Assembly: GCA_900320565.1 (NCBI GenBank) | Contig: ONSR01000004.1 | Span: 9,647-73,646, forward strand | Direction of reading: 5' to 3' | Length of the DNA: 64,000 nt | From: an uncultured Prevotellaceae bacterium | GTDB lineage: Bacteria > Bacteroidota > Bacteroidia > Bacteroidales > Bacteroidaceae | Shown here: positions 11,158-47,098 of the stretch, one piece after another | How positions within the stretch are numbered: the first letter of the stretch is position 1 | Layout: each line of letters opens with the position of its first letter | Notes under the pieces: generated by a model | The model's input: the letters and a program-made list of their open reading frames with translations, nothing else | Database searches by the model: none | What the model was told of the DNA's origin: nothing | Program-made: the position numbers and the translations under genes

Positions 11158-12651
11158 ATGGCAATAAGTGAAGATTTAGGTGCCCTAATCAGGGAGAACT
11201 TCGACCATAAACCGACGAAAGAGCAGGAAAAAGCAATCATTTTGCTTGCCGACTTTTTGCTTTCAAGAGAGCGTGATACGGTTTTCCTCCTGAAAGGATA
11301 TGCCGGCACGGGCAAGACTTCTCTGCTGGCAGCCTTGGTGCGGACGCTCGGTATGTTGCAGCAAAGGGTCATGTTGCTTGCCCCAACCGGCAGGGCAGCC
11401 AAGGTGTTGTCGTCCTACGCGGGCGTTCCAGCATACACTATACACAGGAAGATCTACCGCCAGAAGTCTATCACGGACATGGATGTCTTTCAGAACGATG
11501 TCAACCTTAGGCAGGATACTCTGTTCATCGTAGATGAGGCGTCGATGATTGCGAATGATGCCCACGACACAACCGTCTTTGGTACTGGCCGTTTGCTCGA
11601 CGATTTGATGCACTACGTCTATTCCTGCGAGGGCTGCCGACTCGTGCTGGTGGGCGACACGGCACAGCTTCCGCCGGTCGGCGAGGAAGAGAGTCCGGCC
11701 CTGAGCCGCACGATGCTTGAGGGTTATGGGATGGAAGTGACGGAACTCCAGCTGACCCAAGTTGTCCGTCAACTCGAGGAGTCCGGCATTCTTTGGAACG
11801 CCACGATGCTGCGAAGCCTCATCCAGAACGACGAGATGTTCGAGTTTCCCAAGCTCAGAGGCAAGACCTTCCCCGACGTCAAAGCACTCCCCGGCGATGA
11901 ACTCATCGAGGCGCTCGAGCAGAGTTACCGTAAGTACGGAACCGACGGAACGATAGTCGTGACCCGAAGCAACAAGCGTGCCAATATATATAATAATGGT
12001 ATAAGAGCCCGCATCCTCGACCACGAAGAGGAACTCTCCAGCGGCGACCTGATTATGGTGGCGAAGAATAATTATTATTGGAATGACCGAGAACAGCAGC
12101 AAGGGGCAAGGGGCAAGGAGCAAGAGAACAGCAATCCTCTTGCCCCCTGCCCCTTGCCCCTTGCCCCTTTCTCCTTCATCGCCAACGGCGACATCGCGGT
12201 GGTTCGCCGACTTCGAAACGAGAGGTCGTTCTACGGATTCCGTTTCGCCGACGCCATCCTTGAGTTTCCCGACTACGACAACCGCGAGATGGAGGTCACC
12301 GTCCTGCTCGACACCCTGCAGAGCGAAGCGCCTGCCCTTACCCGACAACAGCAGGAAGCGCTCTTCCAGGGCGTTTGGGAGGACTATCCCGAACTGACGA
12401 ACCGACGCGACAGGATGAAGAAATTGCGCCAAGACCCCTACTACAACGCCCTGCAAATCAAGTATGCCTATGCCGTGACCTGTCATAAGGCTCAGGGCGG
12501 ACAATGGGAGCACGTCTATATCGACCAAGGTTACATCACCGAGGAGATGCTCACGCCCGACTATTTCCGCTGGCTCTACACAGCCATCACCCGCGCTACC
12601 GAACAGGTCTATCTCGTCAACTGGCCCGACTCGGCACTTTCCGACGCCTAA
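11158..12651 (+). CDS. RecD/Pif1-like ATP-dependent DNA helicase
   Basis: GYAGTGKT (Walker A), LFIVDEASMI (Walker B), VLVGDTAQLPPV, AVTCHKAQGGQWEHVYI. Confidence 0.85.
   Translation: MAISEDLGALIRENFDHKPTKEQEKAIILLADFLLSRERDTVFLLKGYAGTGKTSLLAALVRTLGMLQQRVMLLAPTGRAAKVLSSYAGVPAYTIHRKIYRQKSITDMDVFQNDVNLRQDTLFIVDEASMIANDAHDTTVFGTGRLLDDLMHYVYSCEGCRLVLVGDTAQLPPVGEEESPALSRTMLEGYGMEVTELQLTQVVRQLEESGILWNATMLRSLIQNDEMFEFPKLRGKTFPDVKALPGDELIEALEQSYRKYGTDGTIVVTRSNKRANIYNNGIRARILDHEEELSSGDLIMVAKNNYYWNDREQQQGARGKEQENSNPLAPCPLPLAPFSFIANGDIAVVRRLRNERSFYGFRFADAILEFPDYDNREMEVTVLLDTLQSEAPALTRQQQEALFQGVWEDYPELTNRRDRMKKLRQDPYYNALQIKYAYAVTCHKAQGGQWEHVYIDQGYITEEMLTPDYFRWLYTAITRATEQVYLVNWPDSALSDA
12096..12170. repeat. 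inverted heptamer arms (gcaaggg)n / (ccccttg)n inside the helicase gene
   Basis: Left arm 12099-12126 and right arm 12137-12167 are near-perfect reverse complements. Confidence 0.9.
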
Positions 12652-12693
12652 CCAGACGGGTCTCGTCACAAAAATTGACACGTCATCTTCGTT

Positions 12694-12759
12694 GCATATA
12701 CATGTATGTGCAATTGCATGTACATGTATATGCAATTGCAAGTACATGTACGTGCAATA
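12694..12759. repeat. 22-bp phased palindromic array, TACATGTA/TGCAATTGCA family (3 units)
   Basis: gcatatacatgtatgtgcaatt / gcatgtacatgtatatgcaatt / gcaagtacatgtacgtgcaata. A sister array lies at 32336-32401. Confidence 0.9.
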
Positions 12760-12911: not shown

Positions 12912-13883
12912 ATGAATATACTCGTTACAGGAGCGAACGGACAGTTGGGCAACGAGATGCGCATCGTGGCTAAGGACTCGGCGGACCATTACATCTTCAC
13001 CGACGTCACTCAGCAAGAAGGCGCAGAGACCACGTTCCTCGACATCACCGACCTCGACGCCATCCGCGCGATGGTCAAGGAGAACGACGTCCGCGCCATC
13101 GTAAACTGTGCCGCGTGGACTAACGTCGATGCAGCCGAGGCTCCCGAGAATCGTGCGCTCGTCGAGAAGCTCAATGCGACAGCCCCCGAGAACCTGGCTC
13201 GCGCCATGAAGGAAGTGGGCGGTTGGCTCGTGCAGATATCGACCGACTACGTGTTCGGCAAGGAGCCTTACAACACGCCTTGTCGCCCCGACCAGCAGGG
13301 CACACCGACCGGCGTCTATGGCGAAACGAAGAAGATGGGAGAGGAGCGAATCCAAAAAGTATTTAATGAAAAATTAAAAATTAAAAGTGAAAAATTAATA
13401 GCAAGCGAGGCAGAAGGTTCAATGGTCAATGGTCAATGGTCAATGGTCAATGGCGGCTACATCATCATCCGCACGGCCTGGCTCTACAGTGAATACGGCA
13501 AGAACTTCTGCAAGACGATGCTCAACCTCACGGCCACCAAGCCGCAGCTCAAGGTTGTCTTCGATCAATGCGGCACTCCGACGTATGCCCTCGACCTGGC
13601 ACGCGCGATACAAGTCATCCTCCAGAAGCCCGTGCAAGGCATCTACCACTTCTCGAACGAAGGCGTCTGCTCGTGGTACGACTTCACGCAGATGATTGCC
13701 CGCATCGCCGGACACAAGGACTGCGACATCCAGCCCTGCCTGTCTTCGGAATATCCAAGTCCCGTGAAGCGTCCCGCCTACTCCGTCCTCGACAAACGCA
13801 GCATCCGGGAAACCTTCGGCATCGAGGTTCCGTACTGGGTCGATTCACTCGAAAAATGCATTAAGAACATCATTGAAAATTGA
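12912..13883 (+). CDS. rfbD: dTDP-4-dehydrorhamnose reductase
   Basis: MNILVTGANGQLG start, YGETK, IIRTAWLYS. Carries a roughly 33-codon repeat insertion. Confidence 0.9.
   Translation: MNILVTGANGQLGNEMRIVAKDSADHYIFTDVTQQEGAETTFLDITDLDAIRAMVKENDVRAIVNCAAWTNVDAAEAPENRALVEKLNATAPENLARAMKEVGGWLVQISTDYVFGKEPYNTPCRPDQQGTPTGVYGETKKMGEERIQKVFNEKLKIKSEKLIASEAEGSMVNGQWSMVNGGYIIIRTAWLYSEYGKNFCKTMLNLTATKPQLKVVFDQCGTPTYALDLARAIQVILQKPVQGIYHFSNEGVCSWYDFTQMIARIAGHKDCDIQPCLSSEYPSPVKRPAYSVLDKRSIRETFGIEVPYWVDSLEKCIKNIIEN
13368..13453. repeat. mosaic element in rfbD: (aaaaatt)-type arm + spacer + (aatggtc)x4.7 arm
   Basis: gaaaaattaaaaattaaaagtgaaaaattaata ... aatggtcaatggtcaatggtcaatggtcaatgg. Confidence 0.9.
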
Positions 13884-13963
13884 AGATTGAACATTGAACA
13901 TTATTCCGACCCGAAGACTTAGGGCGCAGCCCAATGGTCAATGGTCAATGGTCAATGTTCAAT
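13872..13963. repeat. hairpin-type heptamer element across the rfbD stop and the rfbD-rfbC spacer
   Basis: Left arm attgaaa attgaag attgaac attgaac att, a 30-nt GC-rich spacer, right arm aatggtc x3 aatgttc aat. Confidence 0.9.
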
Positions 13964-14572: not shown

Positions 14573-14938
14573 ATGAAATGGCAAACGGCAGACACAATAG
14601 AATATGAACTTCTAAAAAGCCATTCAAAGGCAAAACGCGGCAATCAGACAGAAGCAGAGTCTGTTTTCTGGCAAATGGCGAAAGGCAGCGGACTAGGACA
14701 AAAGTGCAGAAGACAATACATTATCGGAGAGTATATCGTTGACTTCTTCTTTCGGCAATCAATGCTAATAGTGGAAATAGACGGAGGATACCACTTCACA
14801 GAAGAACAACAAAAGGAGGACATAACGAGACAAAACTGGTTGGAGCAAAAAGGATATAAAGTTCTGCGGTTCACCAACGAACAAGTCTTATATGACACAG
14901 ACAATATGATTAACGAATTAAAAAAGCATCTAATCTAA
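14573..14938 (+). CDS. DUF559 (Vsr-like endonuclease fold) protein
   Basis: YIVDFFF...LIVEIDGGYH...GYKVLRFTN pattern of DUF559. A/T-rich third codon positions, unlike the flanking rfb genes. Confidence 0.8.
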   Translation: MKWQTADTIEYELLKSHSKAKRGNQTEAESVFWQMAKGSGLGQKCRRQYIIGEYIVDFFFRQSMLIVEIDGGYHFTEEQQKEDITRQNWLEQKGYKVLRFTNEQVLYDTDNMINELKKHLI

Positions 14939-17130: not shown

Positions 17131-19812
17131 TTATGCTGTGAGAAGCTCGATGAGTTTCTCGACGGCAGCATGTATGCCATCGGTGTTCTTGCCACCAGCT
17201 GTGGCGAAGTGAGGCTGGCCGCCGCCACCGCCTTGCATCAGTTGAGCAGCCTCGCGAATGTTCTTGCCGACGTTCACACCTGCTGCGACGGCACTATCCG
17301 AAGCTGCCGCCGTGAGCAAAGGCTTGCCGCCAGCAACGGAACCAATCACTACGATACTGTTCTCCACCTCTGCCCGGAGTTGGAAGGCAATGTCCTTAAC
17401 GAACTCCGGACCAAGTGGTGTGATAGCCTTCAAGACCTTGAAGCCGTTCACTTCCGTCTGCTTGGAGAGTATCTCTTTCTTGAGTTCAGCAGCCCTTTCG
17501 TGCATGATGTCTTCCACTTGCTTCTTGAGGTCAGCATTATCGTTGATGGCCTTCTGGATAGTTCCAACCAAGTCGGGAGCGTTATTGAAGAGCCCTCGCA
17601 GACCCGTTATCATGTCCTGCAACTTGTCCATCTGCTCTTCGACTGCCTTACCTGTTATGGCTTCGATACGACGCACACCTGCAGCCACACTGCTTTCCGA
17701 CATGATGCGAACCATACCGATGCAGCCTGTACTGCTTGCATGACAACCGCCGCAGAACTCGACACTCGTGCCGAACTGGATGACGCGCACCTTGTCGCCG
17801 TACTTCTCTCCGAAGAGGGCGATAGCGCCCAGCTTCTTGGCTTCCTCAATCGGCGTATCGCGATATTCCTGAAGAGGCAGGTTCTGACGGATGCGCTCAT
17901 TCACGAGGTGCTCCACCTCACGCAGCTGTTCGGGCGTCACCTTCTCGAAGTGAGAGAAGTCGAAGCGCAGGTAGTCGGGCGTCACAAGCGAGCCTTTCTG
18001 CTCCACATGGTCGCCGAGAACCTCCTTGAGGGCTTGGTCGAGGAGGTGCGTACAAGTGTGGTTGGCCTCGATAGCACGGCGACGCTCCACATCCACGCAA
18101 GCCATGAACTCGGCTTCAGGATTGCTTGGGATGCGCTCCAGCAAGTGAACACTTACGCCATTCTCTTTCTTGGTGTCAATCACCTTGATGGTCTCCTGCT
18201 CATTACAGATGACGCCTGAGTCGCCAACCTCGCCACCCATCTCTCCGTAGAAAGGAGTCTGGTCGAAGATTGCCTCGTAAACGACGCCTTTCTTCTGCTT
18301 CACCTCACGATACTTGACGATGTGGCAAGTGTATTCCGTGTAGTCGTAACCGACGAACTTCTGTTCTGATTGACCATTGACCATTGACGATTGACCATTA
18401 TTTTCTTCGGTGCCGGAATGGTCAATGGTCAATGATGAATGGTCAATGATGTGCCAATCGCCTGCCTCAACCTGGGCGGCATTGCGAGCACGCTCTTTCT
18501 GCTTCTGCATCTCAACGTTGAAGCCAGCCTCATCGACCGTTAGACCATTCTCGCGACAGATAAGTTCGGTGAGGTCCAAGGGGAAGCCATAGGTATCGAA
18601 AAGCGTGAAGGCTTTCTCGCCGGCAATCTCTGTCTTGCCTGCTGCCTTTGCCTCCTTCATCACACCATCCAGCAGTTTGATGCCTGTTTCGAGTGTGCGG
18701 AGGAAACTCTCTTCCTCTTCCTTCATCACTTTCGTAATGAGTTCCTTCTGACCTTCAAGTTCCGGATAGGTTGCTCCCATCTCCTGAATCAGGACGGGCA
18801 GCAGGCGGTAGATGAAGGCCTGCTTCTGTCCGAGGAAGGTATAGGCGTAGCGTACGGCGCGACGCAGAATGCGACGGATGACATAGCCGGCTTTTGCGTT
18901 GCCAGGAAGTTGACCGTCTGCGATGCTGAAAGCAATGGTGCGAAGATGGTCGGCCACTACTCTCATAGCCACATCGATGTCCTCCTTCTCGCCATAACGG
19001 AAGCCGCTGAGGTCGCCGATGGCTTTGATGATGGGCTGGAAGACGTCGGTATCGTAGTTGGACTGCTTGCCCTGAATGGCGCGAACCAAGCGTTCGAAGC
19101 CCATGCCGGTGTCGATAACGTTCATTCCAAGCGGTTCGAGATGTCCATCAGCCTTGCGCTCGTACTGCATGAAGACGATGTTCCAGATCTCGATAACCTG
19201 CGGGTCGTCCTTGTTGACGAGTTCGCGGCCAGGCACTTTAGCCTTTTCCTCAGCCGAACGACTATCGAGATGAATCTCCGAGCAAGGTCCGCAAGGACCT
19301 GTGTCGCCCATTTCCCAGAAGTTATCATGCTTGTTGCCGTTGATGATGTGGTCGGCCGGAACGTGCTTCAGCCAGTAGCCTGCAGCCTCATCATCGCGGA
19401 CAAGATTCTCTTCAGGACTGCCCTCGAAGACCGTCACATAGAGGTCCTTCGGGTCGAGCTTCAGCACATCAACGAGGTATTCCCACGCCATATCGATGGC
19501 TCCCTCCTTGAAATAGTCGCCGAACGACCAGTTGCCGAGCATCTCGAACATCGTGTGGTGATAGGTATCATGCCCGACTTCTTCCAGATCATTATGCTTT
19601 CCGCTGACACGCAGACACTTTTGGCTGTCCGCACGTCGGCGGGGTTCCGGGTCGCGAGTGCCAAGGATGATGTCCTTCCACTGGTTCATGCCGGCATTGG
19701 TAAACATCAGGGTCGGGTCATCCTTCACTACCATCGGGGCAGACGGAACAATCTTATGACCCTTCGACTCGAAGTACTTAAGGAACGAGTCGCGTATCTC
19801 ATTTGCTGTCAT
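17131..19812 (-). CDS. alaS: alanine--tRNA ligase
   Basis: [27 protein letters not shown] and the HTCTHLL editing motif. The first track ATG (19827) lies in a heptamer arm, so the second ATG is preferred. Confidence 0.95.
18369..18450. repeat. inverted heptamer arms (attgacc)n / (aatggtc)n inside alaS
   Basis: Arms at 18369-18399 and 18417-18450, separated by a 17-nt spacer. Confidence 0.9.
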
Positions 19813-19820
19813 AGTTCTAT

Positions 19821-19855
19821 AATTCATAATTCACAATTCATAATTCATAATCATT
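19821..19855. repeat. heptamer arm (aattcat)x5, left flank of the alaS/merR promoter region
   Basis: aattcat aattcac aattcat aattcat aatcatt. Confidence 0.9.
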
Positions 19856-20341: not shown

Positions 20342-20433
20342 CCCAGTTAAGTTGCCAAAGATAGCGTGTTAAGTTTGCAAAGATGGCACGTTAAGTTTGC
20401 AAAGATGGCACGTTAAGTTTGCAAGGATGGCGT
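20342..20433. repeat. 22-bp phased array, GCACG family (about 4 units)
   Basis: ...gcgtgttaagtttgcaaagatg / gcacgttaagtttgcaaagatg / gcacgttaagtttgcaaggatg. Confidence 0.9.
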
Positions 20434-46975: not shown

Positions 46976-47098
46976 CTAAGTTCGTAAACACGGCACGTCG
47001 AATTGCTCAACAAGGTACGTCGATTTGCTCAACAAGGTACGTCGATTTGCCCAACAAGGTACGTCGATTTGCCCAAAGCGGCACGTCGATTTGTTCCA
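46971..47098. repeat. 22-bp phased array, GCACG family (about 5 units)
   Basis: gcacgtcgaattgctcaacaag / gtacgtcgatttgctcaacaag / gtacgtcgatttgcccaacaag / gtacgtcgatttgcccaaagcg / gcacgtcgatttgttcca. Confidence 0.9.

Follow-up and report, generated by a model that had tools for sequence, protein, structure and literature searches.

The stretch of DNA analysed herein, hereafter the window, comprises 64,000 nt of contig ONSR01000004.1 (positions 9,647 to 73,646; assembly GCA_900320565.1) from an uncultured, Prevotella-like rumen bacterium of the Prevotellaceae, and our subject is a repeat-built insert within its rfbD (rmlD) gene, which encodes dTDP-4-dehydrorhamnose reductase. The gene lies on the forward strand at 12912–13883 as an intact open reading frame (ORF) of 323 aa, and its product matches the Pfam family RmlD_sub_bind (E = 1.7e-82) in two stretches that break at the insert. 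A preliminary description of this DNA had placed at 13357–13455 an insertion of roughly 33 codons made of two heptamer arms. The letters it quoted match the window exactly, their translation in the rfbD frame is VFNEKLKIKSEKLIASEAEGSMVNGQWSMVNGG, and SEAEGSMVNGQWSMVNGGYIIIR is a peptide stretch of the insert-bearing RfbD in its predicted translation. The two-arm anatomy was borne out as well: the insert (~90 nt in total, forward strand) consists of a 35-nt array of (AATTAAA)-type units, a 19-nt linker and a 35-nt array of (TCAATGG)x5. The left module (13365–13399) has five units (aatGaaa, aattaaa, aattaaa, agtGaaa, aattaat), the linker (13400–13418, agcaagcgaggcagaaggt) is unique to the window’s cassette and present as a single copy in the genome, and the right module (13419–13453), a member of the AATGGTC family, was detected by Tandem Repeats Finder (TRF) with 100% matches. 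Preceded by 12 nt (caaaaagtattt) plus the next 3 nt, the left arm, linker and right arm make up, in that order, the patch at 13350–13453 that we call the HEPT46 cassette. The GC content of the insert is 0.30–0.36, compared to ~0.6 across the remainder of rfbD.

Both arms are compatible with the rfbD reading frame, each in its own way. The right arm is open in all three frames and is read as MVNGQWS, while a pure (AATTAAA)n array at the position of the left arm would place in-frame TAA codons at 13368–13370 and 13389–13391. Both of these read GAA owing to T>G changes at 13368 and 13389, and the three out-of-frame TAAs of the arm are intact. The replacement of a would-be in-frame stop had been noted before for one unit; there are in fact two such units. 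They lie 21 nt apart within an 11-nt exact repeat, a spacing that fits a single repair followed by an in-frame 21-nt duplication. It had also been claimed that the two arms cannot pair with each other, and this agrees with our results, since no inverted repeat was found in the insert and its predicted folding is no better than that of shuffled sequences (z = +0.67 as RNA, +0.65 as DNA), which rules out a hairpin or cruciform reading. The linker is neither a direct nor an inverted copy of nearby rfbD sequence within 13250–13560. Inteins and group I/II introns are far larger than 29–33 codons, and we rejected both for this low-complexity repeat, which carries no Pfam domain.

In order to establish whether the segment is an insertion, we compared 160 Bacteroidales rfbD loci from genomes and metagenomes (labelled L###). 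The segment between the YGxTK and RTAW motifs is 17 residues long (LHGEQKIIATGCKYVII) in 147 of the 160 loci and 46 residues long in the window, so the flanking RfbD blocks are normally adjacent, as first described, and the insert is no ancestral loop shared with distant RfbD proteins. The net gain is 29 codons: the insertion is real, and about four of the 33 codons originally counted are replaced ancestral codons. Mapped onto the solved structure 1VL0, as had been proposed, the insert separates residues 150 and 151. An AlphaFold2 model of the window RfbD (mean predicted local distance difference test (pLDDT) score 87.5) superposes on 1VL0 with a template modelling (TM) score of 0.95 and a root-mean-square deviation of 1.7 Å; in this model the helix bearing the catalytic YxxxK motif spans residues 134–152, residues 156–178 have pLDDT < 50 and the next strand spans 182–188. 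The insert thus models as a disordered surface loop after the catalytic YxxxK helix and before the next beta-strand, at what we take from the short-chain dehydrogenase/reductase (SDR) fold to be the helix end away from the active site. The housekeeping ORF is intact and the loop has pLDDT < 50, so that the insertion is in frame and its site structurally permissive. RfbD loops have received inserts elsewhere in the order: in Candidatus Physcocola equi (L011, rfbD at 1501–2472), fragments of an aactcac family, read SQLTT, occur at three RfbD loops, and four other Bacteroidales loci (L029, L057, L077, L018) have inserts at a second and a third loop.

The history of the cassette differs from that of the gene that hosts it. 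The patch at 13350–13453 is identical over 104 of 104 positions in L170, L169, L001 and L081, and the window cassette is thereby shared at 100% identity by three rfbD backgrounds, although their flanks match each other at only 81–94%. With the variable part removed, the window rfbD is 96.7% identical to its closest relative, L164, which carries a different 24-aa form and diverges from the window from 13350 onward, and only ~83% identical to L001 and L081, which bear the identical cassette. Between the window and L001 there are 163 mismatches over rfbD and none within 13344–13453, a mismatch-free run with a chance of ~2e-9 given the flank divergence of 16.6%. The converse is seen in L169 and its sister L002, where the flanks are 97.9% and 97.5% identical and the patch 37.5%, the L169 patch being the one shared with the window. 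In a maximum-likelihood tree of 20 rfbD sequences, built with the variable part excluded, the five cassette carriers sit at three places, and the approximately unbiased (AU) test rejected a single clade of carriers (delta lnL 203, p = 3.6e-50). The left boundary of the patch falls within 13343–13350 and its right boundary within 13453–13459; its size is no more than 117 nt relative to the L001 background and at most ~170 nt relative to that of L169.

Strong constraint fails as the cause of this identity, because closely related alleles do show substitutions within the cassette. Neither is the mosaic an assembly artefact, given that independent assemblies concur, including many protein records and L170, a 169-kb scaffold that is 95% identical to the window over 21 kb; moreover, the flanks should share no k-mer long enough for a strain switch at the patch junctions. 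A short contig (L171) does stop exactly at the left edge of the patch, which is expected where several backgrounds in one sample share the cassette. Collectively, these observations support the view that the cassette was recently swapped between lineages and is not an old part of the enzyme.

The length of the cassette was found to be stable. Strain-to-strain polymorphism in multiples of 21 bp had been proposed as a check; judged on assembled alleles, there was none among ~55 full-length, strain-level alleles in six 90%-identity clusters, all of which have 46 residues (39 in the L161-type cluster). Steps near 21–22 nt do separate the lengths of different cassette types. Variation among the alleles consists of point changes only, and amino-acid changes in the cassette accumulate within clusters; L170, at 98% identity, has the same cassette without change. 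One change among the alleles, from MVNGQW to MFNVQC, altered all units together and, by the genetic code, implies a change from aatggtc to aatgttc throughout the arm. A single metagenome allele is broken (L172:1160–1175), where a T>G change in the left arm (tta to tga) creates an in-frame stop and splits rfbD into two ORF calls; the allele may represent an error or a pseudogene. The two ORFs that start within the array are accounted for by a contig end (L171) and by this point nonsense change, and a phase-variation slip was rejected for both. Slippage does occur outside genes, as an intergenic (aattcat/aattcac) array at 19809–19851 is longer by two units in the window than in the 95%-identical L170.

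The rfbD loop is also a hot spot for alternative cassettes in one rumen Prevotellaceae clade. Within it we counted 33 segment types, 10 of which have exactly 46 aa with different sequences, and homologues 82–100% identical to the window protein have segments of 23, 24, 29, 36, 38, 39, 45, 46, 47, 53, 61 and 68 residues. The 46-residue cassettes are 66 nt longer than the common 24-residue form. Some of the alternatives are G/C-rich nested palindromes (L165, L166, L167, L003, L082), the 39-aa cassette of L161 joins the palindrome CCCCCTTTAGGGGG to an (aatggtc) arm as in the window, and the 24-aa form of L164 resembles a deletion remnant of a palindromic cassette. L163 carries a diverged version of the window cassette, of equal length, in which (aattcaa)x5 replaces (aattaaa) and the right arm is conserved. 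At the same site, and independently, Candidatus Physcocola equi has a single 33-nt (aactcac) arm.

The composite itself is not dispersed. It is single-copy in the genome, where it matched only itself, and a search of 400 further genomes sampled from the family for a 33-nt pattern across the linker, with up to 3 mismatches tolerated, gave no hit, which rules the composite out as a multi-copy element. Every copy seen lies in rfbD at one site, which indicates that the composite spreads as an allele, by short-patch exchange and not by transposition. A comparison of filled and empty sites revealed no target-site duplication, and no conserved boundary motif was seen.

What is dispersed are the arms, which belong to a genome-wide population of heptamer modules. 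In the source genome (2.63 Mb, 89% complete), exact arrays of at least three copies number 151 with period 7 and at most 28 with any other period from 4 to 12, the over-representation of 7-nt units that is typical of the heptanucleotide-repeat class. TRF returned 716 period-7 rows, corresponding to ~500 arrays of ~150 unit types, with a length mode sharp at 32–33 nt. The start phase was strongly non-random in seven of the ten largest families, with the same first base in 53 of 78 AATTATG arrays (p = 2e-38), 18 of 32 AATGGTC arrays (p = 2e-9) and 22 of 31 AACTATG arrays. Fixed phase and length together define a module as four units plus 4–5 nt. Slippage predicts neither the peaked length nor the fixed phase; the broad lengths and random phase of slippage-type repeats were not observed. 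We also saw that most families begin with AA (AATTATG, AATGGTC, AACTATG, AATGAAG).

The placement of the modules follows their stop codons. Families that carry stops on both strands occur between genes, in most cases no more than 60 nt upstream of a start codon (as do 234 of the 388 arrays outside genes), while families open on one strand lie inside genes in the open orientation; the AATGGTC family (~30–39 arrays depending on the detection method) is mostly intragenic, with 24 arrays in sense and six in antisense. Among the arrays deep inside genes, 62 of 84 (74%) are built of a unit without stops on the sense strand, compared to 27% of strands for intergenic arrays, and would-be stops are destroyed in 27 of 27 cases when in frame and in 16 of 75 when out of frame. 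Pairing does not define the modules, as the preliminary description had anticipated when it questioned hairpin formation as a universal property: the 494 arrays are mostly solitary, and the 75 neighbouring pairs divide into 35 complementary, 35 non-complementary and five with the same unit. Five sampled relatives from three genera have 4.5–25 arrays per 100 kb with median lengths of 31–39 nt, and an exact 26-nt stretch of AATGGTC array (~3.7 units) occurs in 14 of 301 family genomes from five genera. As a separate observation, (AATTATG)n arrays adjoin start codons in sense orientation and their complement overlaps gene-end stops (C67:15448–17404, C18:11103–12535); the AATTATG unit supplies ATG and TGA in all three frames, and such arrays therefore mark gene borders.

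Two neighbouring sites show comparable turnover. The gene for a RecD/Pif1-like helicase (11158–12651) contains a second hot spot at 12096–12170 on the forward strand, in the segment from NNYYW to FIANGD. This segment measures 42 aa in the window and 27 aa in L168, and five loci that carry different cassettes have 49 aa there (+66 nt). Its length series (a baseline of 27 aa, then 40, 42, 49, 56, 64 and 70 aa) has increments like those at rfbD and involves the same cassette families, and between the window and the 95%-identical L170 the segment is wholly replaced with sharp edges. At the rfbD/rfbC junction, a similar forward-strand element (13871–13963) combines (CATTGAA)4.6, a 29-nt spacer and (CAATGGT)4.6. 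It supplies the TGA stop of rfbD, and its arrival cost RfbD ~10 C-terminal residues. In the relatives L164 and L168 the element is absent, the two genes overlap and the junction measures 26 nt, compared to 114 nt in the window; filled junctions measure 65, 114–115 or 136–137 nt and hold different elements among relatives. The left arm of this element is (cattgac) in L167, where it is complementary to the right arm, and in the window a C>A change in every unit has spoiled the hairpin. Between rfbC and rfbB lies a gene for a DUF559 (Vsr-like) endonuclease (14573–14938). The window, L170, L169 and L002 have this gene and L161, L163, L165, L167 and L168 lack it, so that it is itself an insertion polymorphism.

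We consider it probable, at roughly 0.6, that the insert represents a passenger cassette, translated within a permissive and disordered loop of RmlD, that moves between related Prevotellaceae lineages by allelic short-patch exchange. This reading builds on the anatomy and frame of the insert, the disordered loop of the model, the existence of a hot spot, the sharing of one cassette by incongruent backgrounds and the lack of slippage polymorphism. The cassette consists of two same-orientation copies of a genome-wide kind of repeat module, each a heptamer repeated ~4.6 times over 32–35 nt with fixed ends, joined by the unique 19-nt linker. Its survival in rfbD could be explained by the AATGGTC module being open in all three frames and by the change of both in-frame TAAs of the other module to GAA. 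On this view the composite would not transpose as a unit but would represent one allele at a hypervariable site, spread by recombination or gene conversion whose junctions fall in the conserved flanks. For the enzyme the cassette is probably neutral or selfish, and its exchange is presumably recombinational. Several points weigh against this account. The translation and activity of the insert-bearing RfbD are predicted from sequence only, and all sequences compared are metagenome assemblies. In the L001 background, the patch leaves a shared flank of at most 6–13 nt on the left and ~7 nt on the right. For RecA-type recombination these are very short flanks, unless a related cassette was already present in the recipient. 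Plain recombination also does not predict the fixed 66-nt increment in 10 cassettes, which hints at a dedicated process.

Such a process, in which a dedicated enzyme recognises hot-spot boundaries or modules and writes fixed-size cassettes or replaces them (66 nt, with modules of 32–33 nt) and recombination only mends the break, is possible, though we judge it unlikely; the role could fall to a recombinase, to a polymerase of the ruler type or to a nuclease, homing-type or Vsr-like DUF559. The idea draws on the +66 nt shared by two unrelated hot spots (24 to 46 aa in rfbD, 27 to 49 aa in the helicase), on a module length and phase that are fixed over many unit sequences, on whole-arm changes at constant length (AATTCAA/AATTAAA, AATGGTC/AATGTTC, CATTGAC/CATTGAA) and on the tight ends of the patch. 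Together with the short flanks, the increment, the whole-arm changes and the fixed modules keep driven writing or replacement open. However, no candidate enzyme could be linked to the modules. The DUF559 gene lies 0.7 kb downstream and varies in presence among relatives, but it does not track the cassette across loci (L002 has the gene with another cassette, and L001 gave no match), and we rejected it as a correlate. A RAYT/IS200 mobiliser was likewise rejected, as no Y1/RAYT transposase (PF01797) matched in the 89%-complete genome while control genomes were matched. The 47 inverted-array pairs spaced 150–3000 nt apart bracket ordinary genes or intergenic boundaries, which speaks against an autonomous master element; one of these pairs encloses two small ORFs. 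The missing target-site duplication and boundary motif count against a dedicated enzyme too.

Other explanations concern the role or the age of the insert. A perfect five-unit heptamer array in a surface-polysaccharide gene invites comparison with contingency loci, where slippage of (TCAATGG)x5 by one unit would turn rfbD, and with it the surface polysaccharide that contains rhamnose, off and on. In other bacteria heptamer repeats are prone to slippage, according to the accounts in PMC4679880 (citing Mrazek 2007) and PMC8262952, and the intergenic array with its two-unit difference demonstrates as much here. Nevertheless, copy-number polymorphism among close strains, the mark of such loci, was not observed in the ~55 alleles, which come from many samples and share one length and unit number, the sole broken allele is a nonsense change and not a slip, and the module type is found in dozens of housekeeping genes where switching would be senseless, so that we regard a switch as very improbable. 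A selected function, whereby the loop, its DNA or its RNA is useful (a protein contact, a regulatory site, a translation pause) and the cassette spread by advantage, would agree with its identity in three backgrounds and with a frame kept open in all alleles but one, and the position of many non-genic arrays just upstream of starts may suggest a role in expression there. We find this improbable: at least 10 different cassettes occupy this one loop, close relatives have 24-aa or 17-aa forms of it, disorder is predicted for it, the enzyme is cytoplasmic and amino-acid changes in the cassette accumulate within clusters. Least credible to us is an old, vertically inherited loop kept by strong constraint and repeatedly lost elsewhere. 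The diverged cassette of L163, with its equal length and conserved right arm, does point to some vertical descent, but the scenario needs zero change in 110 nt, third codon positions included, across 17% divergence, and is at odds with the substitutions in close alleles, with the AU test and with the absence of the insert from 147 of the 160 loci.

Among described systems, the cassette is closest, by analogy and in behaviour only, to the Rickettsia palindromic elements (RPEs), which are palindromic, ~100–150 bp long, encode a conserved peptide and reside in an intracellular alphaproteobacterium (Ogata et al. 2000, 2002; as reviewed in PMC10969869). The account in PMC10969869 shares with our case short dispersed repeats that are in frame in unrelated housekeeping genes, an extra peptide compatible with the fold and no visible mobilising gene. 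The cassette is set apart by taxon, length and repeat make-up: at ~90 nt it comprises two non-complementary heptamer arrays, has no palindromic hairpin (no inverted repeat, z scores of +0.67 and +0.65), occupies a hot spot with many alternatives and has been exchanged recently between lineages, while the RPE account in PMC10969869 describes no recent turnover. By its composition it falls into the descriptive class of heptanucleotide repeats of prokaryotes, which, as relayed in PMC4679880 and PMC4692102 from Mrazek 2007, have variable copy number explained by slippage, and which include the cyanobacterial STRR heptamers and the TAACTGA repeats of Beggiatoaceae, Cyanobacteria and Bacteroidetes (PMC4679880). 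Tandem 7-nt units as the commonest period and a mostly intergenic location near starts are common to both, and the argument that tolerance of a heptamer within a gene depends on the stop codons of its unit in each orientation is also made in PMC4679880. The slippage explanation misfits here, as the modules have a fixed length of 32–33 nt and a fixed phase, ~84 are deep inside genes and the coding copy in rfbD did not vary in length among ~55 alleles.

[quoted passage not shown] REP sequences and REPINs are extragenic, with inverted REPs that form hairpins and are linked to RAYT transposases (Bertels & Rainey 2011, PMC3116915). The likeness lies in two short modules plus a spacer, ~100 nt, with singlets and doublets and hundreds per genome; the cassette differs in being intragenic, with arms that do not pair and no Y1/RAYT gene found in the genome. 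It likewise has neither the terminal inverted repeats nor the target-site duplication of MITEs, nor is the same element found at many unrelated loci, since dispersal is limited to the 33-nt arms. Heptanucleotide-repeat contingency loci, such as HMW1A of Haemophilus influenzae, vary in unit number within populations (PMC8262952); rfbD resembles them in its perfect heptamer tract at a surface-structure gene and differs in that the tract is length-invariant in every allele. In the open-access literature searched, we found no description of in-frame repeat cassettes in Prevotella or Bacteroidetes, and we classed the cassette as an in-frame selfish repeat. The present analysis adds recent cassette exchange, a length series at hot spots and a fixed module length and phase. 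The BrickBuilt MITE of Porphyromonas gingivalis, which contains a 23-nt minisatellite, lies only between genes and possesses leader and tail subunits (PMC4596501), is a different element from that in rfbD. By description it recalls another repeat of this genome, found alongside the heptamer modules: 358 tandem arrays of 22-nt hairpin units with many unit sequences and a commonest length of 67 nt (3 copies), the two having 22–23-nt tandem units without spacers in common; in the window such arrays occur at 12692–12758, 20346–20431 and 46987–47093.

These results map a natural permissive site in the RmlD/SDR fold, where a 29-residue repeat is tolerated and relatives have at least 10 alternative 22-residue inserts. 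An identical 104-nt cassette across flanks up to ~19% diverged means that in-frame repeats are not fossils, and that repeat turnover proceeds on the time scale of rumen strain divergence. The fixed length and phase of ~500 modules argue against the usual slippage account of bacterial heptamer repeats. In practical terms, the cassettes break metagenome assemblies, split gene calls (L171, L172) and inflate protein-cluster diversity. A more speculative prospect, to which we assign a low probability, is that Prevotellaceae hold an undescribed process of DNA writing or replacement, with 32–33-nt modules, a fixed start base, ~66-nt cassettes and defined hot spots; if so, that process would overwrite cassettes at constant length even inside essential genes, and the rfbD loop would offer a natural read-out of a mobile-DNA mechanism of the ruler type that works without hairpins or terminal inverted repeats. 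Finally, a difference of another kind separates the window from L170, which at 17578–17687 has a 110-nt insert relative to window position ~20503; it lies by a tRNA-like 3′ end with a 21-nt end duplicated and, from its sequence, looks like an integration scar.

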